Shown here in pieces: positions 2,084 to 39,764 of a stretch of 64,000 bases of DNA. Both the position numbers and the translations under genes were made by a program. Each line of letters starts with the position of its first letter. The first letter of the stretch is position 1. The DNA is taken from the NCBI GenBank assembly GCA_964423165.1, contig CAYRDP010000007.1, positions 283 through 64,282 on the forward strand, written 5' to 3'. The stretch comes from an uncultured Bacteriovoracaceae bacterium. GTDB taxonomy: Bacteria > Bdellovibrionota > Bacteriovoracia > Bacteriovoracales > Bacteriovoracaceae. The notes beneath the pieces are model-generated. The model saw only the letters and a program-made list of their open reading frames with translations. It made no database searches and was not told the origin of the DNA.

Positions 2084-5000
2084 ATGAAGATTGTTTCTTT
2101 ATTCATGTTGCTGTTCGCTCTTGTGGGGTGTGAGTTCCTTACAGGGACAGGGGGTGATGGGGGAAATGAAGAAGAACTTAAGGTTGTTGATAAAAATAAA
2201 CCACCAGGTGGTCAGCAACATGGAGAAAATAATTTAGTCACAGTAAGTTGTACGGTTATTGATCAATATCAAGCTACAAGAATGTGCAACGAAGAGCAAA
2301 TAGAAGAGAGTTTAACGGAAGAGTTCCAAAATAAATGTAATCTTTCTGGCGGTAAGTTCAAGCTAGATGTATGCGGACAGAACTGTGTTTATTTAACTGA
2401 TGATATTATTTTAGAAATAACAGGTGAGGTAGATTGGGCCACACAGCCAGAAGGAAGCTGTTCTCTTGATTTAGAAAGTTGTGGATCTGACCCATGTATG
2501 TTTGGGTGCAGTACTACAGAAAGACGCAACTGGAGTGAATGTAGGTCTGGGAAGATCTCAGATAATGAGCGGTGTTTGGACCAACAAGAAAAAGAAAGAC
2601 TTTCGAGAGTTTCCATTAATGTAGAAATTGCAATTGACCATTACTTGGGAGGCTTTCCCCAATGTACGGATGAAGTAGATACTGGGGTAGATGAAGAATT
2701 ACAAAAAGAAATTGTCTTTGTTTCTGTCTGTGAGAGATCTAGTTTTATTAAAGATTATCTTCAAGTTAACTTAAATAAAGTATGTGAAGCAATTACAGAA
2801 GAGCACTTACTAACTATTACAAACTTAAACCTTAGCAATCAAAACATTTCAAGTTTAACATCTAACGACTTTAATAAACTCTTTAAACTAGAAACTCTTA
2901 ATTTAAGCGGGAATGATATAACGACGCTGCCAGAAGACTTATTTAAAGGGCTTTACACCCTCAGCAATCTAAATCTTTCAGGAAATAATATTTCCAGTAT
3001 TGCAGCAGGTACATTTAATAAATTAGACCTAGGACAGCTTGATCTTAGCAACAACCAGATCAATAATCTTGCGGTAAACTCCTTCAATGGGCTCAGCGTT
3101 AGTACTCTAAGCCTTGTGAATAATCAAATAGGGTCTCTAGTTGCCAACACTTTTAATGGACTCAGTGTTAGTACCCTTATTTTAAATAATAGTCAGATCA
3201 ACTCGGTTGCTGCAGGTACCTTTACCGGAGTGACTGGTCTTGCTTCCCTGGACTTGAGTGACAACGAGATAACAACTCTTCCAGGTAATTTACTAGAAGG
3301 TCTTACTGATCTAACCAGTTTCAATATTCAAGACAATCAGCTAGAAACAGTTCCTACGGACTTCTTTAATGGAACCATCCCTTCTGGAAATCTATATTCT
3401 AATCTTGTATCTATAAGTTTAAAAAGTAATCCATTTGTAAGTATACCTTCTGGAATATTTTCTAAGCTTGGTTTTCTTGGTAGTAATATTTCACTTGCTT
3501 GGAATCAGTTAGCAACAAGTGACAAACAAACATTGAAGGAGGCAGTTGATAATCTGGCGCTTGGGTTTTCAGTAACCGAACTAGACTTAGCTATGGTTTG
3601 CGGGCGTACAGGGGGGGTTAAACTGGCAATAGAGAGAGCTACAGGCAAGAACTGTCTAGATGTAACTCCAGAGAACTTGATCGGTATAAATAGTTTGGAT
3701 GTTTCAGATCGAGATATTGTCTTTTTTCAAGACGGAGATTTTGATGGAATTACTAACCTTAACACACTTGACCTTAGAGATAATTCTTTAATGGAACTTT
3801 TTTCTGGCTTTTTTGATGGTTTTGCAAGTCTTGCAACTGTCTATTTATCAGGAATTAATATGGGCATAGAAGAAAGGCAGATGGTTAAAGCAGAGCTTCA
3901 AACCCTTGGAGTGAATCTTGTCGGAACATCATTAGATGTGGCCAATGTTTGTAGTAGAACAGAACAGGTAAGTAATGCTATTTTATCGTGGGTCAGCAAG
4001 TCTTGTGAAGATATTTTGCCTGCAGACCTTGAAGCAATATGGAAGCTAGAGCTTCAAAACAAAAATATTACCTCACTCAAGGAAGGGGATTTTGATGGAT
4101 TGATCAGTGTACGTATACTTTATCTCCACGTTAATCAAATAACATCTCTACCTGATGGAATTTTTAGTGATTTAGTTAGTGTACAAAATCTTTATTTATC
4201 TGGTAATGATCTGGGATTTATTCCTGAAGGTATTTTTGATAACCTGATTGCTCTTCATACACTCAAGCTTGATGGTAATAACTTATCAGCACTCCCTGAC
4301 TCTGTTTTAGAAAACTTAATAAACCTTAATGAACTTTATCTCCAATTTAATCAAATAACATCTCTACCAGATGATTTATTTGAAGGTTTAATCAATCTTT
4401 CAAGCATTATACTGGCCGGAAATCAACTAACGTCTTTACCAGTGGGTATTTTTGATGGACTCTCTAGCCTTTGGATAATAAACCTCTCAGGTAACCTGTT
4501 AACGAATCTTTCAGATGATACTTTTGAGGAAAATGCTAATATTCTGACGATTGATCTTGAGAATAATAAAATAACAACGATTGAAGCAAATACCTTTAGC
4601 GGACTAACTGTTGAAACTCTTAGACTTAACAATAATAAAATAGAAACAGTTGAAGCAAATGCTTTTAATGGATTAACCGTTGGCAATCTATATCTTTTCT
4701 CAAATGAGTTAACAACGATTGAAACAGGTGCTTTCAATGGGCTAGGTGTTAAAAACCTTATGTTGAATGGTAATGAGATAGGGGTTATCGAGAATGAAGC
4801 CTTTAGCGGCATAAGCGATGATCTTTGGGCGCTCAGCCTTAATAACAATCAATTGACGTCACTTCCTGCAAATATTTTTGGTGATTTGGGCAACATTGAA
4901 TATCTTCATCTTGATAACAATCAATTACTTGAATTACCAGAAGGTATCTTTGATGGGCTGCCTAGTCTTTCACTTATTTTCCTTTCGTACAATCAACTAA

Positions 5001-5311
5001 CTTCTATTCCGGTTGGTATTTTCGATGGGCTAGTTATTCGTGATCTACATCTTGTAGGGAATAATTTAACATCTCTTCCTGATGGGGTACTAAATGGACT
5101 AAGTTTTAGTAATGGTGACCTAAGGTTAAATGATAATCAGTTAACATCCTTACCTGTTGGGATTTTTGATGAGATTACTGGCCTTAACCGTCTTTTCCTT
5201 GGCGATAATAATTTTAGTAGTGAGGAAAAAGATAGAATAAAAGCAGAGGTTAGAAATCTATCTAATCTTCCCAATTTGTCTACGTGGGGGGATGGTGAGT
5301 ATGATCTCTGA
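2084..5311 (+). CDS. Large leucine-rich-repeat surface lipoprotein (1075 aa)
   Basis: MKIVSLFMLLFALVGC is a lipoprotein signal with lipobox. Dozens of LRRs (LxxLxLxxNxIxxLPxGxFxGL) form three cassettes. Each cassette opens with a Cys-capped motif (SVCERS.., MVCGRTGGV.., NVCSRTEQV..). Confidence 0.85.
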   Translation: MKIVSLFMLLFALVGCEFLTGTGGDGGNEEELKVVDKNKPPGGQQHGENNLVTVSCTVIDQYQATRMCNEEQIEESLTEEFQNKCNLSGGKFKLDVCGQNCVYLTDDIILEITGEVDWATQPEGSCSLDLESCGSDPCMFGCSTTERRNWSECRSGKISDNERCLDQQEKERLSRVSINVEIAIDHYLGGFPQCTDEVDTGVDEELQKEIVFVSVCERSSFIKDYLQVNLNKVCEAITEEHLLTITNLNLSNQNISSLTSNDFNKLFKLETLNLSGNDITTLPEDLFKGLYTLSNLNLSGNNISSIAAGTFNKLDLGQLDLSNNQINNLAVNSFNGLSVSTLSLVNNQIGSLVANTFNGLSVSTLILNNSQINSVAAGTFTGVTGLASLDLSDNEITTLPGNLLEGLTDLTSFNIQDNQLETVPTDFFNGTIPSGNLYSNLVSISLKSNPFVSIPSGIFSKLGFLGSNISLAWNQLATSDKQTLKEAVDNLALGFSVTELDLAMVCGRTGGVKLAIERATGKNCLDVTPENLIGINSLDVSDRDIVFFQDGDFDGITNLNTLDLRDNSLMELFSGFFDGFASLATVYLSGINMGIEERQMVKAELQTLGVNLVGTSLDVANVCSRTEQVSNAILSWVSKSCEDILPADLEAIWKLELQNKNITSLKEGDFDGLISVRILYLHVNQITSLPDGIFSDLVSVQNLYLSGNDLGFIPEGIFDNLIALHTLKLDGNNLSALPDSVLENLINLNELYLQFNQITSLPDDLFEGLINLSSIILAGNQLTSLPVGIFDGLSSLWIINLSGNLLTNLSDDTFEENANILTIDLENNKITTIEANTFSGLTVETLRLNNNKIETVEANAFNGLTVGNLYLFSNELTTIETGAFNGLGVKNLMLNGNEIGVIENEAFSGISDDLWALSLNNNQLTSLPANIFGDLGNIEYLHLDNNQLLELPEGIFDGLPSLSLIFLSYNQLTSIPVGIFDGLVIRDLHLVGNNLTSLPDGVLNGLSFSNGDLRLNDNQLTSLPVGIFDEITGLNRLFLGDNNFSSEEKDRIKAEVRNLSNLPNLSTWGDGEYDL

Positions 5312-6580: not shown

Positions 6581-8167
6581 TTATCCTGGAAGATTGGCTT
6601 CGTAATTCCAGGGCAACCACTGTTCTGGAGAAGCTTTCACCCAGCTCGCATTTTCGTGAAGCGCCAGTAGGTATCGCTGAGGGTTTTTCCCCGCGCTTTT
6701 GCAGGTCTCGATTAAGCTCATCATCACGTCTCCCACCAGAGCACCAAACTGTGTCTTGTAGAAATAGGAGTTTTTACGGTTCAAAATGGGGGTCTTTAAC
6801 AAGCGTTCCACAATGTTATTACAGAGGGGAACTCCCGGAATTCTCAAGAAGAGGGTTAGCTCCTTGAAGTGCTTAAAGAAGTATTTTAGCGCATCTCCAA
6901 GTTCCTCGTTGGGTTCTATCTTTTTTAGATAGAGATTTTTCAACCCCCAACGTCTAAGCTTATCTATTACTGGACCTGACTTCTTTTGGTGGTATCGAAG
7001 CCTTTCCTCTGGGGATAGACCGCGCTCATCAGCTATTGCATCGTAATGGTAAATCTTCCTAAAGAGAGAAAGAACATATCCAACCATCTTAGGGTACTCC
7101 TTTCGGTAATCATAAAAATACCTCCTAGCGTGAGTCATGCAATTTGCCCACAGAACTGCCACCTTTTTTGGGAGGTTCCAAGAGAGGGCATCGCTCATGA
7201 TAACCGCCTTTGTCTCCCTAGCACGGCATTGAAGAATTTTATCCAGATTTTCTCCTGCATAATGATTTCCGGTAAAAAAGAGGTTGAATATTCGTTTACC
7301 CGCCTTGCTGACTATGCCCGTTGTATAGATTCCTGTTCGCTTTGCTTTCTCCTCCCTCAGCTGGTGCTGGAGTTCCAGTATTTTATTCCCAGTATCGTCA
7401 CCATGAAGGATGTCCCCATCTGCTGCTAGAGAAATGCATCTCTCAAAAACTGGGTATACTGACTCAAGCAGCACCTCACAGCGGTCCCATTGAGTACTCG
7501 CTGGTATCGGGATTCCTAAACCATTTTGCCATTTGCCAGTTCGATAAAAAGGAAGTCCTAATGCGTATTTTTGAGTGGCAATCGCTACATCGGCTGATGG
7601 ATGGTATTTACGGCGATACTCCGGTGGGAGATAGGCCTCAAAGTAATGGCCACAGGCATTGCATCGCAGTTTCTCTGTCTCGTGAACTGTGGCCTGTATT
7701 GGCGATTCCCCCGTAAATTGAATATGGGTCCCCGGTGCCACTGGATACAACTTTCCAATAGAACACTCTGGACACTTATCGCCTTTATTAACTCCTTCTA
7801 GTTTGTGACTGAGCCTCTTCGCTCCTGGCAGATCCTTCTCGCCATTGCGCCCCTGTCCCAGGTTTTTACCGCCCTTTCCTTTTCCGTGGCGATTACCGCT
7901 CTCCGCTGGCGGCCTGGGGTCCTCGTCATCACTATTCTTATCCTTGGGTGACTTTTCGGTCTTGAAGCTAAAGAGGCGTCTCAGCTTATTCAAGGATAAT
8001 TTCTTAGCGCGGTACATTTGAGCAAGCCAATAGTAGGTATCTAGGATTGTTAGGACTATCTTCTTCTCTGAGTCATTGAGGTTTGTATCTTTAATTTTGG
8101 TCTTTAGCTGCTCAAGTTCTTGATCACTGACGCTGATGACATCTGGTTTTTTGTCTTGTTTTTTCAC
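6581..8167 (-). CDS. tnpC: IS66 family transposase TnpC
   Basis: 528 aa with a Cys-rich zinc-finger-like CPECSIGKL...CNACGH segment, then a long DDE-type region typical of IS66 TnpC. It lies downstream of tnpA/tnpB. Confidence 0.85.
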   Translation of the reverse strand: MKKQDKKPDVISVSDQELEQLKTKIKDTNLNDSEKKIVLTILDTYYWLAQMYRAKKLSLNKLRRLFSFKTEKSPKDKNSDDEDPRPPAESGNRHGKGKGGKNLGQGRNGEKDLPGAKRLSHKLEGVNKGDKCPECSIGKLYPVAPGTHIQFTGESPIQATVHETEKLRCNACGHYFEAYLPPEYRRKYHPSADVAIATQKYALGLPFYRTGKWQNGLGIPIPASTQWDRCEVLLESVYPVFERCISLAADGDILHGDDTGNKILELQHQLREEKAKRTGIYTTGIVSKAGKRIFNLFFTGNHYAGENLDKILQCRARETKAVIMSDALSWNLPKKVAVLWANCMTHARRYFYDYRKEYPKMVGYVLSLFRKIYHYDAIADERGLSPEERLRYHQKKSGPVIDKLRRWGLKNLYLKKIEPNEELGDALKYFFKHFKELTLFLRIPGVPLCNNIVERLLKTPILNRKNSYFYKTQFGALVGDVMMSLIETCKSAGKNPQRYLLALHENASWVKASPEQWLPWNYEANLPG

Positions 8168-8219
8168 AAGACCAATAATGCCATCATTGGCATCTATGGC
8201 CTAGACCGACAGCAATATA

Positions 8220-8564
8220 TTAGTAGAGTTTTTTCCAGTCTTCGCTAAAGGTGACGTCGGTGGCGGCATTGATAATGAGTTGAAGTTTGCGGTAGTCGAG
8301 ATCTGTACCGGCCCCGACTCCCTCTGGCCACCAGGGGAACTTCCCCTTAGAAAGCCTCTTCATCATTAACCAGAACCCCTGGCCATCATAGACGAGGATT
8401 TTTATCGAGGCCTTGCGCTTATTCCGAAAAATGAAAAATATCCCCGAGTCAGGGTTCTTTTTTAGCAGTTCTCGACATATACGCTTTAGGCCAAGAATCC
8501 CATTTCGAAAGTCAACTGGCTCGATAGCAACAAAGACTTTGGATTGAGAGTTTAGAAGGATCAC
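8220..8564 (-). CDS. tnpB: IS66 Orf2-like accessory protein TnpB
   Basis: VFVAIEPVDFRNGILGLKRICRELL...ILVYDGQGFWLMMKRLSKGKFPWWP is the conserved IS66 Orf2 signature. A 4-nt ATGA overlap joins it to the upstream orf1. Confidence 0.85.
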   Translation of the reverse strand: MILLNSQSKVFVAIEPVDFRNGILGLKRICRELLKKNPDSGIFFIFRNKRKASIKILVYDGQGFWLMMKRLSKGKFPWWPEGVGAGTDLDYRKLQLIINAATDVTFSEDWKKLY

Positions 8565-8881
8565 AGGTCAATACTCAGGGTTATATTGTTGGGGAGTTGC
8601 AATATAATCTGCTTTTTGCTGAAGGCCATCTCTGGCACTTGAATGACAGAAATAGATTTACTTGTCTTTTTCCCCTCCTTGGGTGCCTTCTTTTGGGAAT
8701 TCTTCATTCTGCGAATAAGGTTACCCTTATTTATACTGAGTTCGGAGGCAATGGTCTCAGGAGATAGCTCTCGCGAGAGAGAGACTGCCTTCTCCCAAAA
8801 CTCCTTTGGGTACTTTTTTGTTCGCGGGTGCCTGGCCCTATGGTCAGCGAGAATTTTCTTGAGTGAGGTAAGTTCGTCCAT
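8561..8881 (-). CDS. tnpA: IS66 Orf1-like protein TnpA (HTH)
   Basis: Its position and size are typical for IS66 orf1, and ELSINKGNLIRRMK is an HTH-like segment. Confidence 0.7.
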   Translation of the reverse strand: MDELTSLKKILADHRARHPRTKKYPKEFWEKAVSLSRELSPETIASELSINKGNLIRRMKNSQKKAPKEGKKTSKSISVIQVPEMAFSKKQIILQLPNNITLSIDL

Positions 8882-9080
8882 AGATACTCCATTTTGGACG
8901 AGGATACCAGCTGGGATTAGGGATGGTTAAGCTTGCTTATCGAAAGGACACATTTAAGCTATAAAATGTCACTTTTCTGGGTGAAAATGTAAAAAGAGGA
9001 AGTTCACGGATGAATAAAATAAAAAAGCTAGTAGGGCTTTTCCTCTTTCTTTGTAATTCCCTCAAATATTTTCAAAGTTA

Positions 9081-9413
9081 TTACCATAAAAGCCGAATTA
9101 ATTTGAGTAATTTTTTTAATTCTTTAATATCTAAATTTTTTAAAAGTAAATCTATTTGTTTTATTAAACGTTCATTTGTTTGTTTACTAGATTTACTTTC
9201 AAATAAAAATAGCTCACTTGGAGAAATATCTAGCGCTTGGCTAACAGATATAATGAATTCAAATGATGGGCCTCTTCGTCCTGATTCAACGTAGGAAAGA
9301 TGTTGTGACGTTATTGCCATTAATTCACTTAGCTCCTCTTGCGTTAATCCAACCTCTTTTCTTAAATGTCTTACTCTTCTGCCAAACTCCGACTTATAGT
9401 TGATTTTTTTCAT
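9081..9413 (-). CDS. XRE family transcriptional regulator
   Basis: GRRVRHLRKEVGLTQEELSELMAITSQHLSYVESGRRGPSFEFIISVSQAL is a classic XRE HTH. Confidence 0.8.
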   Translation of the reverse strand: MKKINYKSEFGRRVRHLRKEVGLTQEELSELMAITSQHLSYVESGRRGPSFEFIISVSQALDISPSELFLFESKSSKQTNERLIKQIDLLLKNLDIKELKKLLKLIRLLW

Positions 9414-9598
9414 GTAACCCTCTGTTTTAATTATTAAGGGCTTGAAATATAAAGTTAATCGACTAAAAGATTGGTATACTGTAACTTTAAGTATATGTTT
9501 TCGAGGAGGAAAATTAAGGAATCTACTCTTAAATTAATGTGAGAATACATAAAAGGACAGCTAAAGTTTTGAAAAAATTAGCCGATATATCCTATTGA

Positions 9599-9625
9599 GT
9601 AATTGTAATTGTAATTGTAATTGTA
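9599..9625. repeat. Hexanucleotide microsatellite (gtaatt)x4.5 in the promoter/5' region of the DGR target gene
   Basis: Read directly: gtaattgtaattgtaattgtaattgta. It ends 33 nt before the ATG at 9658. An aggagga RBS lies at 9644-9650. Confidence 0.85.
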
Positions 9626-9657
9626 TTTACTTTCAATTTGGATAGGAGGATTAAGCA

Positions 9658-11085
9658 ATGAACAACAAAGCAAGTATATTAGGTGGATTCCTTTTACTTG
9701 GAAGCTTATTATCGGGCTGTTCGAGTACGAGTGATTCAACGCGTTTGCCAGCAAGTACAATGGATGCAGGAATTATTGGCCCGAAAGGGGAAGTCATTCT
9801 TTTCTACAAAAAAAATAGCAAAATTATTGTTAAGCAATGCGAGGACTACACAGTTTTAAAATCAAGAAGTGACTGTAAAGTTAAGCCAGGAACGGTTGTT
9901 CAAAATGTTTCGGTTAGTGACTTTAAAAACTCTCTTAAAATGGCATTGAAGCTTCCTGGTGGAAACTATGATGCTGAAACGAAAAGAAAAATTGAACTTT
10001 ACAACAATGGCCAAAGAGATGATGTTGAAGAGCTTTCAAGGCGACAAAGAGAGCTAAAAGCTCAGATCGCAAAAATTGAAGCATTTATTGAAGAATATAG
10101 TGCTCAGGATGCAGATACTGGACACCTATCAAGCTTGATAGATAGTTTGTCTCAAGTGGAAGGTGATCTAGGGGATTATGCTCAACTTGGTCAGATTATT
10201 AAAGAGATTAATGAAAAAATTGACAACCTAGTTGATAATATTATTTCAAGCGATACCCTTTACAAATATACTTTCTCAAAGCAAAAAACAGGCTTTGTTT
10301 TTAACATTCTTAGAGCTTATTTAAGAGCACCAATGATTTCCGCTTCTTTCCAGAGAATTGCAAGAGGAAGCTTCACTATGGGAAGCCCTTCTAGTGAAAG
10401 TAATCGCGGTAGCGATGAAGGACAAAAAGAAGTCACGATTTCTAAGTCTTTTGACATCATGACTACGGAAGTAACTCAAATGCAATGGTTTTTAGTCATG
10501 GGGACAAACCCATCACGATTTAAAAAGCCAGAGCATTGTGACAACCACATTAATATTAACGGTGAAGGGTTATGCCCCAGTAATCCAGTAGAGCGAGTTT
10601 CTTGGAATGATGTTCAAACCTATATCAAGAAACTAAATGACTCTCTTGGGTTAAGTGGTTGTAATGGAACTCCAAGTGATTCAAAAGGATGCTATCGCCT
10701 TCCAACGGAAGCTGAGTGGGAATTTGCTGCTAGAGGAAAAGCAACAACAGCTTATTCTTTTGGAAATAGCTCATCAAGTTTAGGAAGTTATGCTTGGTAC
10801 AGCAGCAACTCAGATAGCAAAACTCATTCAGTAGGTTTAAAAAGGGCAAACCCTTACGGACTCTATGATGTTCATGGAAACGTATGGGAATGGGTACAGG
10901 ATAATTACAAGAATGGATTAACAGGTGGAACTAACCCGCTGCATACATCCTCCGGGTCTCTCCGCGTTATTCGTGGCGGCAGTTGGGGCAGCTACGCGCG
11001 GTACTTGCGCTCCGCGAATCGCTTCTTCGACATCCCGGACTACAGGTTCACCGGTGTCGGTTTCCGCCTTGTGAGGACACTGTAA
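9658..11085 (+). CDS. DGR variable (target) protein: lipoprotein with coiled-coil region and C-terminal FGE-sulfatase/C-type-lectin-fold domain
   Basis: MNNKASILGGFLLLGSLLSGC is a lipobox. FGE-sulfatase motifs are present: GSFTMGSP, VSWNDVQTYIKKLN, YRLPTEAEWEFAARG, GLYDVHGNVWEWV and RGGSW. The last 45 codons are the VR. Confidence 0.9.
   Translation: MNNKASILGGFLLLGSLLSGCSSTSDSTRLPASTMDAGIIGPKGEVILFYKKNSKIIVKQCEDYTVLKSRSDCKVKPGTVVQNVSVSDFKNSLKMALKLPGGNYDAETKRKIELYNNGQRDDVEELSRRQRELKAQIAKIEAFIEEYSAQDADTGHLSSLIDSLSQVEGDLGDYAQLGQIIKEINEKIDNLVDNIISSDTLYKYTFSKQKTGFVFNILRAYLRAPMISASFQRIARGSFTMGSPSSESNRGSDEGQKEVTISKSFDIMTTEVTQMQWFLVMGTNPSRFKKPEHCDNHININGEGLCPSNPVERVSWNDVQTYIKKLNDSLGLSGCNGTPSDSKGCYRLPTEAEWEFAARGKATTAYSFGNSSSSLGSYAWYSSNSDSKTHSVGLKRANPYGLYDVHGNVWEWVQDNYKNGLTGGTNPLHTSSGSLRVIRGGSWGSYARYLRSANRFFDIPDYRFTGVGFRLVRTL
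10950..11075 (+). repeat. DGR variable repeat (VR)
   Basis: It aligns without gaps to 13051-13176 (offset 2101). All 93 non-A template positions are identical. 19 of 33 template adenines are substituted here. Confidence 0.9.
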
Positions 11086-11121
11086 TACTTTAGGGCTTTT
11101 ACACTTTTACCCTTTAAGATA

Positions 11122-11175
11122 GCCCTTAGAGCAGTGATGCGAAGCACACTTGCTCTAAGGGCGTTTTTTATTTTT
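11122..11175 (+). terminator. Intrinsic terminator-like hairpin downstream of the VR gene
   Basis: gcccttagagca (11122-11133) pairs perfectly with tgctctaagggc (11151-11162). A T-tract, ttttttattttt, follows at 11164-11175. Confidence 0.7.
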
Positions 11176-11185
11176 GAGAATAGTT

Positions 11186-11707
11186 ATGATGCAAGTCAAG
11201 ATTTTTACAATGCCATTTAACTCCCAATTGGGAGTTTTTGACGATGAAGAATTCAATAGCTTCATCAAAGATAAAGAGCTTGTGTCAGCTAATGACTACT
11301 TATTTCAGCGTGATGAGATTCCCTATCTAACTCTTGTCGTAAAATACAAACAGTTAGCTTCTGTAGTCATGTCTGCAAGTAATGGTACTAAACCTCAAGA
11401 AAAAACTAAGAATAATGAAGAGTGGAGAAAGCTCTTAGATGATGAGTCCATGCCACTATTTAATACCCTAAGACAATGGAGAAGTGAGAAAAGTAAAAAA
11501 GATGGTGTCCCTCCCTATGTCATTCTAAACAATAAGCAACTTGCGGAAGTATGCCAAAGAAGACCTCAATCCAAATTTGATCTTATGAAAGTTGAGGGTA
11601 TTGGAAAAGCAAAAGCAGAGAAATACGGAGATGAGATTTTAAAAGTAACTTCATACCCTGAAATAACTAAAGATACCAATGAACACTCAGCACAGCAATC
11701 CCCGTAA
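11186..11707 (+). CDS. HRDC-domain DGR accessory protein
   Basis: The C-terminal part, LFNTLRQWRSEKSKKDGVPPYVILNNKQLAEVCQRRPQSKFDLMKVEGIGKAKAEKYGDEIL, matches the HRDC pattern of RecQ/RNase D. The track start 11174 is TTG, so ATG at 11186 is more likely. It overlaps avd by 29 nt. Confidence 0.65.
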   Translation: MMQVKIFTMPFNSQLGVFDDEEFNSFIKDKELVSANDYLFQRDEIPYLTLVVKYKQLASVVMSASNGTKPQEKTKNNEEWRKLLDDESMPLFNTLRQWRSEKSKKDGVPPYVILNNKQLAEVCQRRPQSKFDLMKVEGIGKAKAEKYGDEILKVTSYPEITKDTNEHSAQQSP

Positions 11708-12047
11708 AAATGAGGAATTGCCAATTTTTGTAAAGTGGCTTGAGTTTTTAAAATGGTTTCTTCCGACTCTTGAAAAATTTCCTAAAAAAGCACGATTCAC
11801 CATTACAAGCAGAATTGAAAATATTGCACTTGATATTGTTGAGCTATTGATTGAAGCCAAATACTCAAGAGAGAAAAAGCCAATCCTAAGAAAGATCAAT
11901 CTCTACTTAGAAAAAATAAGAATCCTGCTGAGGATCTCACATGAAACAAAGCTAATTTCAACCAAGTCTTATAATTTTGCAAGCAAGGGGATCAATGAAG
12001 TTGGAATGATGCTTGGTGGTTGGCTTAGGCAGCAGGAAAGGCGATGA
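11679..12047 (+). CDS. avd: DGR accessory variability determinant (Avd, four-helix-bundle protein)
   Basis: 122 aa. LPIFVKWLEFLKWFLPTLEKFPKKARFTITSRIENIALDIVELLIEA...MLGGWLRQ matches the Avd / 23S-rRNA-IVS four-helix-bundle family pattern. It sits immediately 5' of the RT with an ATGA overlap. Confidence 0.8.
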   Translation: MNTQHSNPRKNEELPIFVKWLEFLKWFLPTLEKFPKKARFTITSRIENIALDIVELLIEAKYSREKKPILRKINLYLEKIRILLRISHETKLISTKSYNFASKGINEVGMMLGGWLRQQERR

Positions 12048-13042
12048 AAAGATATGGAAACCTTTTCAATAAAATTACTGAAATTGAAAACCTCTATTTG
12101 GCGGCAAAGAAGTCGTTTAAAGGGAAGAAATTTAAATATACCGCTGCCCCTTTTTATTTCAATCTTGAAAACGAGCTTCTGAAAATTCAAAGAAAACTAA
12201 ACGATGAAAGCTATCATCCTTCTTCTTATAAAATCTTTAAAATCTATGAACCAAAAGAGAGAAGAATTTGCTGTGCAGAATTTCACGATAGAGTTGTTCA
12301 TCATGCAATTGTTAATATTTTAGAACCAATTTTTGAAAGAAGGCTTATCTTTGATACTTATGCTTGCAGAGAGGGGAAAGGAACTCATGTCGCTTTGAAA
12401 AAAGCGCAGGATTTAGTAAGGAAATATAAATATTATTTAAAATGTGACATAAGAAAATATTTTGAATCTATTGACCATAATGCTTTAAAAGTATTGATAA
12501 GGAAGATATTTAAAGACAATAAACTGATAAGGCTTCTTGATAAAATTATTTCTCATCAACCACCCTATACTGCTCACGGGAAAGGTCTTCCCATTGGAAA
12601 CCTAACGAGTCAGCATCTTGCCAATATTTACTTGGGGGAACTTGATCTTTTTATCAAGCACGATCTCAGGTGTGTCGGATATGTTCGATATATGGATGAC
12701 TTTATTTTATTCTCCGATGACAAAAAAGAGCTGAGAATCTTTCTTGAAAAAATAAGAGACTTTCTTTCCGTGAACTTAAAGCTGGAGCTTAAAGAAAAAA
12801 TAGTCAAAATTGCACCAGTAAGTGAAGGGTTGCCTTTTTTTGGATATAGAATATTTCCTGGTTTGATTCGACTACAAAGGGCCAATCTTGTCCGATTCAG
12901 AAGAAAGGTAATGAGACTTGAAAAGAAATACAAAAAAGGAAAAATTAAGGAGGAAGATTTAATTAATTCTGTGAGAAGCGTGGTGGCTCATATTTCTCAT
13001 GGGAACACAAAAAATTTAAGAAATTCAGTATTTTTTAGGTGA
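12044..13042 (+). CDS. DGR-type reverse transcriptase
   Basis: The N-terminus is MKRYGNLF. It carries IGNLTSQHLANIYL (the DGR RT signature with SQ) and a YMDD catalytic box (VRYMDDFILF). At 332 aa it has no maturase or endonuclease extensions. Confidence 0.9.
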   Translation: MKRYGNLFNKITEIENLYLAAKKSFKGKKFKYTAAPFYFNLENELLKIQRKLNDESYHPSSYKIFKIYEPKERRICCAEFHDRVVHHAIVNILEPIFERRLIFDTYACREGKGTHVALKKAQDLVRKYKYYLKCDIRKYFESIDHNALKVLIRKIFKDNKLIRLLDKIISHQPPYTAHGKGLPIGNLTSQHLANIYLGELDLFIKHDLRCVGYVRYMDDFILFSDDKKELRIFLEKIRDFLSVNLKLELKEKIVKIAPVSEGLPFFGYRIFPGLIRLQRANLVRFRRKVMRLEKKYKKGKIKEEDLINSVRSVVAHISHGNTKNLRNSVFFR

Positions 13043-13050
13043 GTGGTCAA

Positions 13051-13176
13051 CTCCGGGTCTAACCGCGTTATTCGTGGCGGCAGTTGGAACAACAACGCGC
13101 AGAACTTGCGCTCCGCGAATCGCAACAACGACAACCCGGACAACAGGAACAACAATGTCGGTTTCCGCCTTGTGAG
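13051..13176 (+). repeat. DGR template repeat (TR), non-coding
   Basis: It starts 8 nt after the RT stop. It has 11 AAC codons plus one AAT in the VR frame (NRVIRGGSWNNNAQNLRSANRNNDNPDNRNNNVGFRLV). It is GC-rich relative to its surroundings. Homology to VR ends after gtgag. Confidence 0.9.
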
Positions 13177-13315
13177 TACAAGTTATTGCCAGATAAATGG
13201 AGTTCAAGGATTTCATTTCCGCGCATCAGGTTTGTCCAGACCACTGACCTGTGCCAGATTTTTTTGGACGAATAAAATTAGTGCCATAGCTTTGAGTAGT
13301 GATAAGCGAAAATTG

Positions 13316-13630
13316 TTATGGCACTTTTTTAATAGGTCTATAGAGAGTAGAAGATATAGTTTCTACGGAAAAGCATTTGAATTTAGAATCACATTTAACA
13401 AGCTTACCCGTTATCTTTTTGAAGGTTTGCTCTTTCATCATATTCTGTTGTTTTTTGGAAATATCAAGAAGTTTAAGCTGTGCTTTACGAAGTTCTTTGT
13501 TCTTTATTTTTCCATCTTGTGCAGATAAAAACCAATGACCTTTTTTCTTATAAATTGTTCCTATCGCCGTATCAACCTCACTAGCTTGGACTGAAAAGTT
13601 GATTACCAAGAAAGCAATGATAATTTTCAT
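13316..13630 (-). CDS. Small secreted hypothetical protein
   Basis: Signal peptide MKIIIAFLVINFSVQASE. A 4-nt overlap joins it to the upstream peptidase gene. Confidence 0.5.
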   Translation of the reverse strand: MKIIIAFLVINFSVQASEVDTAIGTIYKKKGHWFLSAQDGKIKNKELRKAQLKLLDISKKQQNMMKEQTFKKITGKLVKCDSKFKCFSVETISSTLYRPIKKVP

Positions 13631-14913
13631 AATGCCCTCATACAGTTTGAGTTTTCGGTTTTATGAATCTTGCCAAATTTAGCTACAAGTTCTCTCTCCG
13701 CACTTTGTAATGCTTGAGCAGTTTGTATCGTTTTTATTTGAGACTCATCAATCTTATCTTGCTTCTGAGATGCTATAGCATCTCTTTGTTCTGATAATGA
13801 AGTGTTATATGCTTCAAGAGCAAGGTAAAATTTTTTTAGTTTATCGTTAAGTAGTATTTTAAGAGTCTCATCCAGAGAGTCATTTATTTGAGATAGTAGT
13901 GTTTTAAACTTATTTTCAATTTGATGGCATTGCAAAGTTTGACTTTCACGCAAGACAAATGAGAATGATTCACCTCGAAAATAAGGCACATCAAGTAGAG
14001 AGCTTATTACAGGTTCTTGAAAACTTGAATCAACATTTCTTGACGACCAATAGGTAGAATCAATACTGGAGGTATCAAGATTATTTTTTTTAGCATGAGC
14101 TAAAACTTTTTTAAAGCACTCACTATTTTTAAAATATGAATCTTTTTTCAAAGTATCGAGAATTTCACTATAATATCGAAGAGTCATATATTCATAAGAA
14201 GAAGTATAATCTTTAGAGAAATGAGGATCACTTTCAAAGCATCCATATCCAACAGCATTACCAGCAGTTTGAAAAAATACACAGGTCTTCTTTAAACCGT
14301 ATTTTTCAAGCATTGGTTTAGCCCTACCTGAATTGCATGATGAAAGTATGATATTAGGTAAAGCACCTTTGTCTTCTAAATCTTTAATATGTTCAAATAG
14401 CTTCTCTGTTGGAAAAACAACTTGGTTTCCTTCATTATCATAGATTGTAAAGGTATGATTACATCCAGTATTAAAATCAGCCCTGATATGCTTTCCAATT
14501 TCACCGCAAGAATCTTGTCCATGAGCAGTGACTAAGATTTCAACTTTGTCACCTTCTTTAATCTTAGATTTTAGGTCTTCAAAATATTGATTTATTGAAT
14601 TTGATGTTAGAGGAGCAGTAGAATTTAGTTCTGATACTTTCTTAAAGTCAGTTTTATACTTTTCTTTTTCTGGATGCTTAGATTGGTGAGGCCCAAATAG
14701 TGTTTGAGTCTCATAACCACGATTATTCAATCCTATGGTTGCAGCTATAGTATTGCGAGCAAACTCATGTCTATTAGGCTCATTTTGATTTGATGGGCCG
14801 CCAATTATGAGTGCAAACTTCTTTGCATTAGCATTCTGCGATAAACTGAATAAAAATATAAGTGAGTATAATTTAAGTAACTTTTTCACACTATTCTTAT
14901 CGGTTAAATACAT
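13627..14913 (-). CDS. Secreted clan-CD (legumain/caspase-like) cysteine peptidase candidate
   Basis: It has a signal peptide, then KKFALIIGG. The candidate catalytic His is in VEILVTAHGQD and the candidate Cys in NIILSSCNSGRA, an H-G...C-x-S-G arrangement as in C13/C14 families. This is a motif-level call only. Confidence 0.45.
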   Translation of the reverse strand: MYLTDKNSVKKLLKLYSLIFLFSLSQNANAKKFALIIGGPSNQNEPNRHEFARNTIAATIGLNNRGYETQTLFGPHQSKHPEKEKYKTDFKKVSELNSTAPLTSNSINQYFEDLKSKIKEGDKVEILVTAHGQDSCGEIGKHIRADFNTGCNHTFTIYDNEGNQVVFPTEKLFEHIKDLEDKGALPNIILSSCNSGRAKPMLEKYGLKKTCVFFQTAGNAVGYGCFESDPHFSKDYTSSYEYMTLRYYSEILDTLKKDSYFKNSECFKKVLAHAKKNNLDTSSIDSTYWSSRNVDSSFQEPVISSLLDVPYFRGESFSFVLRESQTLQCHQIENKFKTLLSQINDSLDETLKILLNDKLKKFYLALEAYNTSLSEQRDAIASQKQDKIDESQIKTIQTAQALQSAERELVAKFGKIHKTENSNCMRAL

Positions 14914-15031: not shown

Positions 15032-15346
15032 TTATCGTTCAAGCAACTTTAATGGATTAGTAATTCCAAACCCATCGCTCAAGTCAACAATTGTTTGAAG
15101 CCTCGGATTTGTCATCTTTCCTTGGTTAATTTCTTGAATTGTTCCAATGGAGAGTTTAGCTTTATCAGCTAGTTCTTGCATAGTCCAATTTCTTTCTTTT
15201 AAAAGCTTTTGCACGTTTAGCTGCAAGCGCTTCGCAAGTTGCTTAGTTTTACGGTGTTCAATCTGATCTACGGTGATTCTAGTCACAAGCTTAGTTCTCC
15301 AAATTATATATTTGATAATCACGGATTTATCCGCTATAGTCATCAC
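15032..15346 (-). CDS. XRE family transcriptional regulator
   Basis: LKERNWTMQELADKAKLSIGTIQEINQGKMTNPRLQTIVDLSDGFG is an XRE HTH. Confidence 0.75.
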   Translation of the reverse strand: MMTIADKSVIIKYIIWRTKLVTRITVDQIEHRKTKQLAKRLQLNVQKLLKERNWTMQELADKAKLSIGTIQEINQGKMTNPRLQTIVDLSDGFGITNPLKLLER

Positions 15347-20794: not shown

Positions 20795-22384
20795 ATGATG
20801 TATAAAAATATTATAGTATCTAGTCTATTTATCTTAACAACATTTAGTGTGCAAGCATACAGTACTAAGTATAATAGCAGGTGCCCAGGGAATCAAAATT
20901 ATGACTTACATGAAAACTTTGGCCCAATTCGTTCTCAAGCTCAAGCACCTTGGTGCGCTACCTTCACTGCTACTGCTTTAGTCGAACATTTTATCAAAAA
21001 AGAAACTGGAGTTTCACGTCAACTTTCTCGTACTGATGCCAATAGTATTATGTCCACTCGTCCTCTTGATAACAAGGGAATGCCTATTCGAGATATTGAT
21101 TTAGCGGAGGGATCAAATTCGCTAAATATTTTGGAAGGCATACAAAATGTTGGAGGGCTATATGATCGGTCTGAATTGCCTTTTGATTCAGCATTATTTG
21201 GACATAATAAATTATTAGAAAAATTACAGGATTATTATGCACAGACAGAAAGCAATGATTGCATTGATTGCTTAGACTTAGCAGTACAGGGAGGACCTCT
21301 TGATAGCACAAATGCTAAAAACCAGCTATCCAACATTAGAAGATTATCACATTCTTTAGATGAATTTTTAAATAAAGTGAATAAGGATTTAGGCAATCAA
21401 ATTTACCGCTTACTTCCTTTGAATTCGAATGCCACGCGTGTGCCAGTACCACCATATAATGTTAAAAGAAATTCACATGCTAATGGAGATCAATATATTG
21501 AAGGGTTAGTTAATTCATTAAAAAATGGACGTCCCCAAATAGCGAGCGTTTGTTATAATAAACTACATAGAAATATAACAGGACAGCATATTGGAAGCGA
21601 TTGCGGTGATCATGCTATGGTTATGGTTGGTTCTAGAACTCATAATGGTACATGCCAAGTTTTACTTAGAAATAGTCATGGCCGCAGTTGGCCATCTAGT
21701 TCAAATGCTGATCCTGGTGGTGGTTATCAATGGGTTAATGTAAATGATTTTTTAGGTGCTGTTAGAAAACAAGATAATAATACATCAATTACTGTCGAAA
21801 TCACCAAGAGAGCACCTCCTATTGATCAAGTCAAAAATGATATCCCCTTACTTGATGGATCTAGATATGTCGGGAGAACCTGGCAAGGAAAATTAGAAGG
21901 TTCTGGTAGTCTTTATTCACCCGATGGATCACTAGAGGGTCAAGGTAGGTTTGAAAATGGTCGTCAGGTAGATGGAGAAATTCTTATTAAGTTTCATAAT
22001 AGTACTGATACGTTTTGGGGTAATTTTTATCGTCATAATAATATGATTTATCCTCATAATAAAGGAAAAGTTTCAAATAGCCGTGGAGAGATAATTGAAG
22101 AAGGAGAATATTCTCAAGGTCGATTTATCAACGGCACTTCAGACAGGTTAAAATTTACAAATGGTCAAAGTTATAAAGGACATGTTCGAAACTCTGTTCC
22201 TAATGGTCAAGGAGAGCTTTTTAATTCAAAGGGAGAACGAATTGCAGTTGGAGTTTTCAGAGATGGTAATATTTTTACCGGCCAGTTGTTTAAATATCCT
22301 GTGACGGTACGTAGTGGAAACAAATTATTTACAGGTAATATTGAAAATAGACAGTTTGACCTTAATCATGGAGTCTTAGAATAA
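20795..22384 (+). CDS. Secreted papain-like (C1-type) cysteine peptidase with C-terminal MORN repeats
   Basis: The Gln/Cys region is RSQAQAPWCATFTATALVEH, the His is in GDHAMVMVG, and there is an Asn-Ser-(H/W) segment LLRNSHGRSW. The C-terminal YxGxxxxGxxxGxG repeats are MORN-like. Confidence 0.6.
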   Translation: MMYKNIIVSSLFILTTFSVQAYSTKYNSRCPGNQNYDLHENFGPIRSQAQAPWCATFTATALVEHFIKKETGVSRQLSRTDANSIMSTRPLDNKGMPIRDIDLAEGSNSLNILEGIQNVGGLYDRSELPFDSALFGHNKLLEKLQDYYAQTESNDCIDCLDLAVQGGPLDSTNAKNQLSNIRRLSHSLDEFLNKVNKDLGNQIYRLLPLNSNATRVPVPPYNVKRNSHANGDQYIEGLVNSLKNGRPQIASVCYNKLHRNITGQHIGSDCGDHAMVMVGSRTHNGTCQVLLRNSHGRSWPSSSNADPGGGYQWVNVNDFLGAVRKQDNNTSITVEITKRAPPIDQVKNDIPLLDGSRYVGRTWQGKLEGSGSLYSPDGSLEGQGRFENGRQVDGEILIKFHNSTDTFWGNFYRHNNMIYPHNKGKVSNSRGEIIEEGEYSQGRFINGTSDRLKFTNGQSYKGHVRNSVPNGQGELFNSKGERIAVGVFRDGNIFTGQLFKYPVTVRSGNKLFTGNIENRQFDLNHGVLE

Positions 22385-38387: not shown

Positions 38388-39764
38388 GTGCTGAAAGATA
38401 ATTTTTCCCATAATATTAATTTTATCAATTTACTCAAAAATCATTTATTATATTTGTATGATAGTTTTTTATCTAGGGGAATCATTTTGAAGCTTATTAG
38501 GATTATTTTTTTATTTTCCATTTTTGTATCAACGGCCTGTTCAACTTCCATTAGTAAAGCAAAAAATAGTTCTAATAAAATAAGGGTTAATAGATTTGAA
38601 AGACAAGAAGTAAAAATTCATAGAAGTGCTATTAAAAAGAGAAATAAAAAATCAGATAATAAAACAGACTTAAAACTAAAATATTCAAAAAAATATGTAA
38701 ATTTTTGGATGAAATACTTCACGAAAAAAGAAAAAAAACGTTTTATTAAACATCTATCTAATGCTTCTAAGTATAAAGAATTGGTTCAATCAATATTTGC
38801 AAAACATGGGTTACCCCAAGATCTATTCTATGTTGGTTTAATAGAAAGTGGGTATAACAGTAAAATAAAAAGCAGGTCGGCAGCAGTAGGCCCTTGGCAA
38901 TTTATCAAAGGTACAGCAAAGATATATGGATTAAAAGTGAATCGTTACGTAGACGAGCGGATGAATATTTATAAGTCTACGGAAGCAGCCGCACAATACT
39001 TTAAGGATTTATACAATATTTTTGGAAGTTGGGACCTTGCTCTATGTGCATATAATAAAGGAGAATATGGAATTATTAGGGCGATACGAAAAGGCAATAC
39101 AAGAGACTATCAAGAACTAATTAGAAAAAAATTAATTCCAAAGGAAACTCAGTATTATATTCCGAAAGTAGTAGCAGCTCGTTCTCTTTATATTAACAGT
39201 TCTAAGCACAAATTATTTTATGATCGTCCAAGTTCTCATGATTATAATAATGGGTCTGCGGTGAAATTAAGGCAAAATTTTAGAGTATCAACTATTGCCA
39301 GTAAGCTCGGGATACCTAAAAGATTGGTTTTAAAATTAAACCCAGACTTACAGAGGGATTATGTAAAGGTTGGAAGAAGTGGTCTAAAAGTTTTCTTACC
39401 AAAAGAGAAAAGCTCTAATTATTATTTAAGTAAAATTAAGAATACTAAAGTTCGTAAGCAAGTGACAACTAATAATGTAAGAAAACATAGGGTTAGAAGA
39501 GGTGAAACATTATCTTCAATTTCTAAAAAATATAATATAACGATTAATCATTTAAAAAAATATAACAGTTTGAAAAATAGTAAAATTAAAATTGGGCAAT
39601 ATTTGAATTTACAAATGAAAAGTAATGTTTATATTGTGAAATCAGGTGATAATCTAGGTAAAATTGCGAGTCGGTTTGGATTATCAGTTGCTAAGTTGGC
39701 CAAGTATAATTCTTTAAATTCATACAGAATTTATCCTCGACAAAAAATATATATTCCAATTTAA
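38388..39764 (+). CDS. Membrane-bound lytic murein transglycosylase (SLT domain + LysM repeats, MltD-like)
   Basis: The SLT motif is GLIESGYNSKIKSRSAAVGPWQF. Two LysM-like repeats are present (HRVRRGETLSSISKKYNI..; YIVKSGDNLGKIASRFGL..). Confidence 0.75.
   Translation: MLKDNFSHNINFINLLKNHLLYLYDSFLSRGIILKLIRIIFLFSIFVSTACSTSISKAKNSSNKIRVNRFERQEVKIHRSAIKKRNKKSDNKTDLKLKYSKKYVNFWMKYFTKKEKKRFIKHLSNASKYKELVQSIFAKHGLPQDLFYVGLIESGYNSKIKSRSAAVGPWQFIKGTAKIYGLKVNRYVDERMNIYKSTEAAAQYFKDLYNIFGSWDLALCAYNKGEYGIIRAIRKGNTRDYQELIRKKLIPKETQYYIPKVVAARSLYINSSKHKLFYDRPSSHDYNNGSAVKLRQNFRVSTIASKLGIPKRLVLKLNPDLQRDYVKVGRSGLKVFLPKEKSSNYYLSKIKNTKVRKQVTTNNVRKHRVRRGETLSSISKKYNITINHLKKYNSLKNSKIKIGQYLNLQMKSNVYIVKSGDNLGKIASRFGLSVAKLAKYNSLNSYRIYPRQKIYIPI

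Follow-up and report, generated by a model that had tools for sequence, protein, structure and literature searches.

The 64,000-nucleotide stretch of contig CAYRDP010000007.1 considered here (assembly GCA_964423165.1; hereafter the window) carries a complete diversity-generating retroelement (DGR), whose target is a gene for a putative variable lipoprotein of 475 amino acids (9658..11085, + strand, in the open reading frame list). We think, with a probability of roughly 0.8, that this is an active chromosomal DGR of a member of Bdellovibrionota, which diversifies an exported and lipid-tethered protein whose fold is that of a C-type lectin (CLec), and that this protein is coupled to two secreted proteins encoded nearby, p428 and p104. 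Lipoprotein targets of DGRs are already known in Treponema and Legionella; what sets this one apart is the host phylum, the occurrence of HRDC and Avd genes together, an N-terminal module of the target, and the linked secreted pair.

The retroelement cassette

All parts of the cassette are on the + strand, in the order target, HRDC, Avd, reverse transcriptase (RT) and template repeat (TR). The target gene is followed by an HRDC-domain accessory gene (11174..11707; Pfam HRDC, E = 1.3e-21), which is conserved in the related loci L169, L170, L172, L177 and L180, by a bAvd accessory gene (11679..12047; Pfam bAvd, E = 1e-21), and by the gene for an RT of 332 amino acids (12044..13042; Pfam RVT_1, E = 1.4e-20). 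The RT contains the motifs YMDD and IGNLTSQ, the latter of which we take to be specific to DGRs. The TR (13051..13180) starts 8 nt after the RT stop codon and is repeated, at 85% identity over 130 nt, in the variable region (VR) of the target (10950..11079, amino acids 431-474), which ends two codons before the target stop; no second VR for this TR is found within the window. An open reading frame of 161 amino acids at 13043-13528 was considered as a gene and rejected, as it reads through the TR and gives an Asn-rich translation of the template.

VR and TR differ at 20 sites. Nineteen of these are adenines in the TR; they all fall in codon positions 1 or 2 of the target and affect exactly 13 codons (amino acids 435, 444-446, 448, 449, 456, 457, 459, 462 and 464-466). 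The twentieth is a non-adenine (G/T) mismatch at the 3' end, at 11076, possibly a trace of IMH/IMH* asymmetry, and the homology stops at 11079. The sequence-only reading of this DNA had called the gene a DGR target with 13 variable residues, and both statements hold, given the complete cassette and the adenine bias of the mismatches. The TR has 35 adenines in 21 codons, 13 of which are AAY, and no adenine substitution in it can produce a stop codon. If the 13 AAY codons vary along with as many as eight others, the theoretical repertoire amounts to approximately 1e21 DNA sequences and 1e20 proteins.

Mechanistically, the RT, together with the bAvd and HRDC proteins encoded alongside, is part of a cassette in which the final 130 nt of the target gene receive a copy of the TR, and in this VR copy other bases take the place of TR adenines. 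Judged from its sequence, the cassette appears to possess every defining feature of a DGR that can be tested, namely, a TR/VR pair with differences confined to adenines, an adjacent RT, the Avd and HRDC accessory genes, and transfer of sequence from TR to VR (see below).

A GC-rich stem-loop followed by a T-run (11122..11162, + strand; DNA fold of -19.9 kcal/mol, z = -6.75) lies about 40 nt past the VR and separates the target gene from the HRDC-Avd-RT-TR block. A consensus scan places a terminator-like site inside it (stem 11151-11163). This element looks like the terminator of the target gene, which would isolate the target transcript, and is possibly also the retrohoming-promoting hairpin that is found 3' of VRs in other DGRs.

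Evidence of activity

The window was aligned to L177, a 1.74-Mb contig of a relative in which the target is 95% identical and the gene order is the same. Differing sites make up 3.5% of the non-VR part of the target, 5.2% of HRDC, 6.8% of Avd and 7.8% of RT; the TR, which is less diverged than its surroundings, differs at 1 of 130 sites, and the VR at 17 of 130, 16 of them at TR-adenine sites. The seventeenth VR change (10980) matches the sole change in the TR (13081). One of the two lineages has therefore had a template mutation copied into its target, which is direct evidence for TR-to-VR transfer since the lineages of the window and L177 split.

Comparison with further relatives gives the same picture. 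The 90%-identity cluster of the target contains four further proteins, which differ from it mostly at the 13 codons. In more distant loci, adenine-specific mismatches account for 13 of 14 in L169, 24 of 25 in L170 and 19 of 20 in L171. Across 70 homologues, the entropy is 3.2 bits at the AAY positions versus 1.1 bits at the other, interleaved scaffold positions of the VR. The DGR is thus demonstrably active, and its mechanism of diversification is established as far as comparison of sequences can establish it. As a natural instance of a DGR at work the locus is a clean one: between two sequenced relatives, a change in the TR has been carried over into the VR.

Export and lipidation of the target

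The target protein begins with MNNKASILGGFLLLGSLLSGC, followed by SSTSDS, i.e., with a short basic n-region, a hydrophobic core of 14 residues, a lipobox L18-S-G-C21, and serine at position +2. The signal peptide is encoded at 9658..9720 on the + strand (lipobox at 9709-9720), and the following Ser/Thr-rich linker (amino acids 22-34, 9721..9759, + strand) is likely a tether; it is predicted to be disordered, with pLDDT below 50 for residues 8-34. In 51 of 70 full-length homologues [GAS]-C is found at the same place after a hydrophobic stretch, so that the lipobox of the target, pointed out in the sequence-only reading, is no chance match. None of these proteins has Asp at +2; the residues found there are S, A, T, L and V. 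An ordinary signal peptide lacking the cysteine, with cleavage just before the conserved start of the module, is present in the other 19.

Two pairs of cysteines, 61/73 and 294/306, are invariant in the 70 homologues, and a third, 335/345, is invariant among the ten closest. Such conservation is consistent with export into an oxidising compartment. Export of the target is therefore well supported by its sequence, and lipid modification at Cys21 is likely. The architecture of the target is shared by more than 100 clusters of homologues.

A Shine-Dalgarno sequence, AGGAGG (9644..9649, + strand), can be read 8 nt upstream of the target ATG. Just 5' of this ribosome-binding site, in the leader or promoter region of the gene, is a tandem hexanucleotide repeat (GTAATT/TAATTG; 9601..9626, + strand), which in the window and in contigs of the same strain is 12 nt, or two units, longer than in L177 and L178; it might modulate expression. 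A scan for sigma-70 promoters around the target gave no more sites than were found in shuffled sequence.

The N-terminal module

The signal peptide and linker are followed by an undescribed domain, the N-module (amino acids 35-233; 9760..10356, + strand), which in the AlphaFold2 model consists of a small β/α subdomain with the invariant Cys61 and Cys73, and then of helices. Specifically, after the disordered linker (20-34) the model has strands at 36-61 and 82-85, helices at 86-96, 106-117, 121-147 and 154-196, and another, short element at 201-223 that connects to the lectin domain. Modelling of the module alone (residues 34-233; pLDDT 83.5) gives the same elements, except for a one-residue break in the second long helix. 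The two long amphipathic helices, 121-147 and 154-196 (10018..10245, + strand), are predicted to form an antiparallel hairpin. In the family alignment, the conserved hydrophobic positions of both recur with a period of 3.4-3.5 residues and the a/d positions are kept, indicating that the heptad character of these helices is real. The sequence-only reading had described a heptad-rich region of roughly 200 residues; this is true for about 76 of them, but the remainder is made of linker, strands and short helices.

Three observations favour an antiparallel hairpin over a one-way rod. The long helices are linked by only six residues; the weak fold matches of the module are exclusively antiparallel coiled-coil hairpins (p85 iSH2, UvsY, ING4, the arm of seryl-tRNA synthetase, and HlyD); and in a shortened subfamily both helices have been trimmed, the first by 7 residues and the second by 15, at a similar distance from the turn. 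We therefore predict an intramolecular antiparallel coiled-coil hairpin that projects from the protein as an arm. With such a hairpin, the N-terminal subdomain would lie at the base of the arm together with the CLec domain, both at one end, and so the hairpin would not serve as a spacer. Of the earlier proposal of a membrane-tethered binder displayed on a stalk, the lipid-tethered binder remains plausible, but the stalk is predicted to be a two-helix hairpin and not a simple spacer.

The module has no evident relatives of known structure. No Pfam family scores above threshold with it; its fold gives nothing at E<=0.001 against PDB or the BFVD viral models; and in PDB its sequence profile matches coiled coils and helical bundles alone, through their composition. 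A full search of 1.84 billion representative sequences with a hidden Markov model (HMM) retrieves 242 proteins with the N-module, which is always N-terminal. In some of them (P0285, P0289, P0298, P0300 and P0312) it is fused to lectin domains of the Lcl_C/DUF1566 type, with C-termini ending in SVRCV, the signature of DGR targets of that type; P0300 has the module twice. Thus the N-module behaves as a carrier for either of the two main lectin heads of DGRs, FGE-type or Lcl_C-type, and the locus adds an undescribed carrier domain for such heads.

Ten loci with the N-module were found in GTDB with a narrower alignment (A4), the broader one (A3) being too divergent for pattern search. The same kind of search with the full-length alignment (A1) or with P0034 alone yielded, among the matches listed, only relatives of the FGE domain, from many phyla, as the search patterns lay in generic motifs of FGE.

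The variable lectin domain

The rest of the protein (amino acids 234-475; 10357..11082, + strand) is a CLec-fold domain of the FGE (formylglycine-generating enzyme) subtype, matching Pfam FGE-sulfatase over amino acids 234-473 with E = 2.7e-46. The best sequence match is TvpA (PDB structure: 2y3c; E = 8.9e-32), collinear with the target through the VR. An AlphaFold2 model built on the 70 homologues (mean pLDDT 85.5, pTM 0.65) also has TvpA as its first match in PDB (E = 1.4e-19, TM 0.74 on the target), followed by PvdO and formylglycine-generating enzymes. The FGE/CLec domain with the VR at its extreme C-terminus, as first read from the sequence, is thus borne out by both sequence and fold. 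FGE enzymes have two catalytic cysteines in the region equivalent to amino acids 431-475 of the target, where the target has no cysteine at all; the catalytic pair is therefore absent. We rejected the possibility that the target is an FGE enzyme, as its VR is devoid of catalytic cysteines and the protein is a DGR target.

In the solved structures of CLec variable proteins, the binding site is made up of the variable residues, which are all exposed to solvent, and the VRs of TaqVP, Mtd and TvpA can be superimposed almost exactly (PMC6328139). From homology, the 13 variable residues of the target are expected to be exposed and to form a ligand-binding face.

Secreted partners of the target

Immediately beyond the TR, on the opposite strand to the target, are the genes for p104, a small secreted protein of 104 amino acids (13316..13630, - strand), and p428, a secreted Cys-rich protein of 428 amino acids (13627..14913, - strand), a conserved neighbour of the target family; the p104 gene overlaps the p428 stop by 4 nt. 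Both proteins have signals of the signal peptidase I type, and homologues at approximately 41-44% identity adjoin target-family genes in other loci. In all, p428 is next to the target in ten loci, including the window and L177, in three arrangements: divergent and upstream of the target (L167, L171, L173, L174, L175 and L181), upstream of a tandem target array (L182), and between the target and the TR-RT-Avd-HRDC block (L180). p104 accompanies p428 beside the target in L167, L171, L174, L175, L177, L180, L181 and L182. Linkage that is kept through rearrangement argues for shared function, and the target lipoprotein appears to work with p428 and p104. In the parts of the DGR surveys consulted for comparison, no two-gene secreted partner of this kind is mentioned.

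The p428 family is a narrow one, with only 15 clusters among 5.8 billion proteins and no Pfam match above cutoff. The alignment of its 15 sequences has eight conserved cysteines, a helical tail, and two invariant signatures, AHG (His130) and SC (Cys192, in the motif SC(H/N)SGR), each of which comes after a hydrophobic stretch. This arrangement makes p428 a candidate cysteine peptidase of clan CD; it is possibly legumain-like, which should be taken as a lead only. In the comparison of the p428 profile with PDB, the helical tail matches coiled coils and nothing else.

It is conceivable, if rather speculative, that the lipoprotein, p428 and p104 make up one unit specific to Bdellovibrionota, in which the DGR-diversified lectin head would pick a structure on another cell or particle, the secreted pair would act on the bound material or mature the receptor, and the N-module would be a dedicated display platform that this lineage joins to variable heads of either the FGE or the DUF1566 type.

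Comparison with known variable proteins

The target most resembles TvpA of Treponema denticola, which is also a CLec protein of the FGE subtype with the VR at its extreme C-terminus, a predicted lipoprotein signal and a chromosomal DGR; the Treponema cassette likewise has an HRDC accessory gene (PMC4891356; architecture C of PMC5758913). TvpA, however, is a single-domain monomer (PMC6328139), whereas the target has in addition the N-module of approximately 200 amino acids, and the DGR of the window differs from that of Treponema in having both HRDC and Avd, a host in Bdellovibrionota, and the linked p428 and p104. TvpA itself is predicted to be a surface lipoprotein (PMC4891356). LdtA of Legionella pneumophila, another lipoprotein diversified by a DGR in a C-terminal VR of CLec type, serves as the functional model for the target and as a precedent for display on the surface, where it is exposed (PMC5758913). 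Unlike the target, LdtA has a CLec domain of the DUF1566/Lcl_C type, and its DGR resides in an integrative and conjugative element (ICE) and has an MSL accessory gene. Mtd of the Bordetella phage BPP-1 has a C-terminal CLec domain of the FGE subtype after non-variable N-terminal domains, which organise the protein, and the logic of mutagenic retrohoming is the same; the target differs in being a cellular lipoprotein with a helical module.

Within the same phylum, the MAT fibre proteins of Bdellovibrio bacteriovorus have been proposed to recognise prey, but they owe their diversity to a set of distinct fibre genes and not to hypermutation (PMC10769870). Profile and fold searches detected no similarity in sequence or fold between the N-module and these proteins. 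The report on the MAT fibres (Caulton et al. 2024; PMC10769870) cites structural literature on C-type lectins and Mtd. Among the papers searched, as far as their text was available, we found none that links DGRs with Bdellovibrionota, although supplementary tables of the surveys may include such elements; the co-occurrences in the text seen are mere co-mentions, namely, in the reference list of the Bdellovibrio fibre paper, which cites the Mtd structure, in a survey of CRISPR targets, and in an unrelated preprint on a domain family. Bdellovibrionota goes unmentioned in the main texts of two DGR surveys, as does Bdellovibrio in a third (PMC5758913).

The host

The window is chromosomal and encodes glyA, fabF, fabH, alanine racemase, MlaDEF, a sigma-54 activator and one tRNA. 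The best 120 matches of FabF include nine with taxon labels, at 63-68% identity, and all nine are labelled Halobacteriovoraceae, Bacteriovoracaceae, Bdellovibrio, Bdellovibrionota or 'Deltaproteobacteria'. Serine hydroxymethyltransferase (SHMT) is uninformative in this respect, its matches at 58-64% identity being scattered over many phyla, and an exact search of the GTDB representative genomes with 43 nt gave no hit. The ten N-module loci in GTDB are assigned to Bdellovibrionota (seven), to a 'Lysobacteraceae' metagenome-assembled genome (MAG; two) and to 'Proteobacteria' (one). The label of the MAG, 'Lysobacteraceae bacterium WA131c' (JAGTJX01; L170 and L172), is doubtful and probably wrong, given that the two loci have a G+C of 0.42, unlike Lysobacteraceae, and a cassette of the Bdellovibrionota type. 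On the strength of these comparisons, the host very probably belongs to Bdellovibrionota.

The window had also been read as part of a predator-like genome. Its gene content is not diagnostic in this regard, and no predation-specific gene was identified in it, but taxonomy, through FabF and the distribution of the N-module, supports Bdellovibrionota; predator ancestry is thereby supported at the level of phylum, and the organism itself may be a predator. Of the surrounding genes named in support of that reading, a leucine-rich repeat (LRR) protein (2084-5311) and a transglycosylase with SLT and LysM domains (38388-39764) are indeed present, but no peptidase reaches the Pfam threshold.

What the variable lipoprotein may do

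We propose that the target is exported through Sec, is lipidated at Cys21, and would be sorted to the outer membrane by the +2 rule of E. coli, which may not hold in Bdellovibrionota. The flexible linker of about 13 residues would hold the protein at the membrane, and the disulfide-containing subdomain and two-helix coiled-coil hairpin would carry the TvpA-like CLec domain, with the variable residues as its ligand-binding surface. As its ligand, some variable extracytoplasmic structure is most likely, for instance, the surface of another cell, a particle or a phage. A membrane-tethered variable binder can be soundly inferred from homology.

Several observations weigh against this scheme. The lipobox cysteine is missing in 19 of 70 homologues (27%), and lipidation is therefore not essential to the family. 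PorK, an FGE-fold lipoprotein of type IX secretion that faces the periplasm, is among both the sequence and the fold matches of the target, so the fold alone does not imply surface display. The exposure of the variable residues and the geometry of the hairpin are both taken from a predicted model. An identical target protein (P0122) with the same neighbours is found on 12 public contigs; this single VR haplotype in several samples means that the assembled haplotype is stable in that population. Finally, neither p428 nor p104 is found within 7 kb of the L170 and L172 targets, and the match of p428 to Peptidase_C13, over the Cys region, is seen in one member and falls below threshold (21.3 bits; cutoff 22.8), the other 14 members giving nothing.

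Some of these points would also fit with a binder that faces the periplasm or is released in soluble form, taking variable small ligands, peptides or glycans in the course of nutrient scavenging or sensing. Most proteobacterial lipoproteins face the periplasm; in 27% of the homologues the signal peptide is a plain one and the lipid anchor is missing, lipoproteins of the PorK type are among the matches, and the linked p428 and p104 have signal peptidase I-type signals. We nevertheless regard this as a rather unlikely alternative, since LdtA, the characterised lipoprotein target of a DGR, is found exposed at the cell surface (PMC5758913), and most DGR targets of cells are anchored in the membrane and bind extracellular substrates (Roux et al., PMC8144416). 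Prey recognition, suggested in the sequence-only reading, is a speculative and unlikely idea, according to which a predatory cell would carry the lipoprotein on its outer surface and use DGR variation to adapt attachment to the envelopes of different prey. In Bdellovibrionota the cultured members live as obligate predators (PMC12724312, PMC11656739), the N-module family is for the most part restricted to this phylum, and in relatives the target family has grown to several paralogues per genome; a lectin-tipped fibre has, moreover, been implicated in prey handling by Bdellovibrio (PMC10769870). Yet the lineage is uncultured and its lifestyle only deduced, the neighbours in the window are housekeeping or unannotated genes, and the literature searched gives no DGR link to these predators.

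The cassette might also be cargo of a mobile element or phage, with the lipoprotein serving that element, for instance, in phage exclusion or defence. The G+C content of the island is above that of most of the window (0.375-0.39 in the bins covering 8001-12000, versus approximately 0.29-0.36), helix-turn-helix (HTH) regulators and, in this strain, an IS66 flank the island, the L180 gene set is located between genes for a VapE-like primase and a family-A DNA polymerase, and the L178 cassette is broken beside a resolvase. Against this, the locus is syntenic in the 95%-identical relative, with chromosomal genes around it and no phage structural genes; tblastn of the N-module against 50,697 phage records gave no match; and the window RT, whose best matches in phage records are reverse transcriptases, shares at most 42% identity with any of them. 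We consider such a function quite improbable.

The preferred reading thus remains that of an exported, lipid-tethered variable CLec protein coupled to p428 and p104. A hypermutable envelope protein family found mainly in Bdellovibrionota would be a concrete candidate for a part in how predatory bacteria recognise their prey. If none of the functional ideas holds, the locus would be an ordinary Treponema-type DGR in a new host. The parts worth following are the carrier module and the conserved partner genes.

Genomic surroundings and variant loci

A Cro/C1-type regulator of the HTH_3 family (9081..9413, - strand; Pfam E = 2.2e-13) is divergent from the target; it is also present in L177, with a 67%-identical copy in L168. 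A second Cro/C1-type HTH regulator is found at 15032-15346 (- strand), so that two regulators bracket the DGR island. Between the small upstream open reading frames and the first HTH gene lies an IS66 element (6581-8881, - strand) with a 528-residue transposase, TnpB_IS66 and a small open reading frame. IS66 is missing at the same place in L177 and is therefore a strain-specific insertion, approximately 200 nt from the HTH regulator. The DGR island and IS66 together (8001-14000) have G+C of 0.35-0.43, which hints at a horizontal origin.

The LRR protein (1075 amino acids) consists nearly entirely of leucine-rich repeats, with 13 LRR_8 stretches; its gene is conserved upstream of the island in the 12 contigs with the identical target, and L177 also has a large gene at that position. 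An unannotated protein of 529 amino acids (20795-22384) scores 16.5 bits with Peptidase_C1 (cutoff 20.7), the only Pfam trace of the peptidases that had been claimed for the neighbourhood.

Several of the related loci depart from the arrangement seen in the window. L180 (GCA_021733565.1, JAKFZD010001315.1), in which the target, p428, p104, RT, Avd and HRDC are enclosed by the primase and polymerase genes, may represent a mobile-element or prophage context. L178, from a record named as sponge metagenome, has a degenerate copy (P0123) with truncated HRDC and no RT, followed by a resolvase and an integrase fragment; its target has an internal duplication of 10 amino acids (GSYAWYDSNS) and a different VR. 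Several paralogous targets, some tandem and some fragmented, are found in L179, in L182 and on a contig of 766,781 nt (P0010, P0011, P0012, P0014 and P0015), and there is no RT within 10 kb of P0010. L169 has a second, partial VR at the start of the contig. L172 has HRDC and Avd and no RT, and L170, from the same MAG, has the full cassette.

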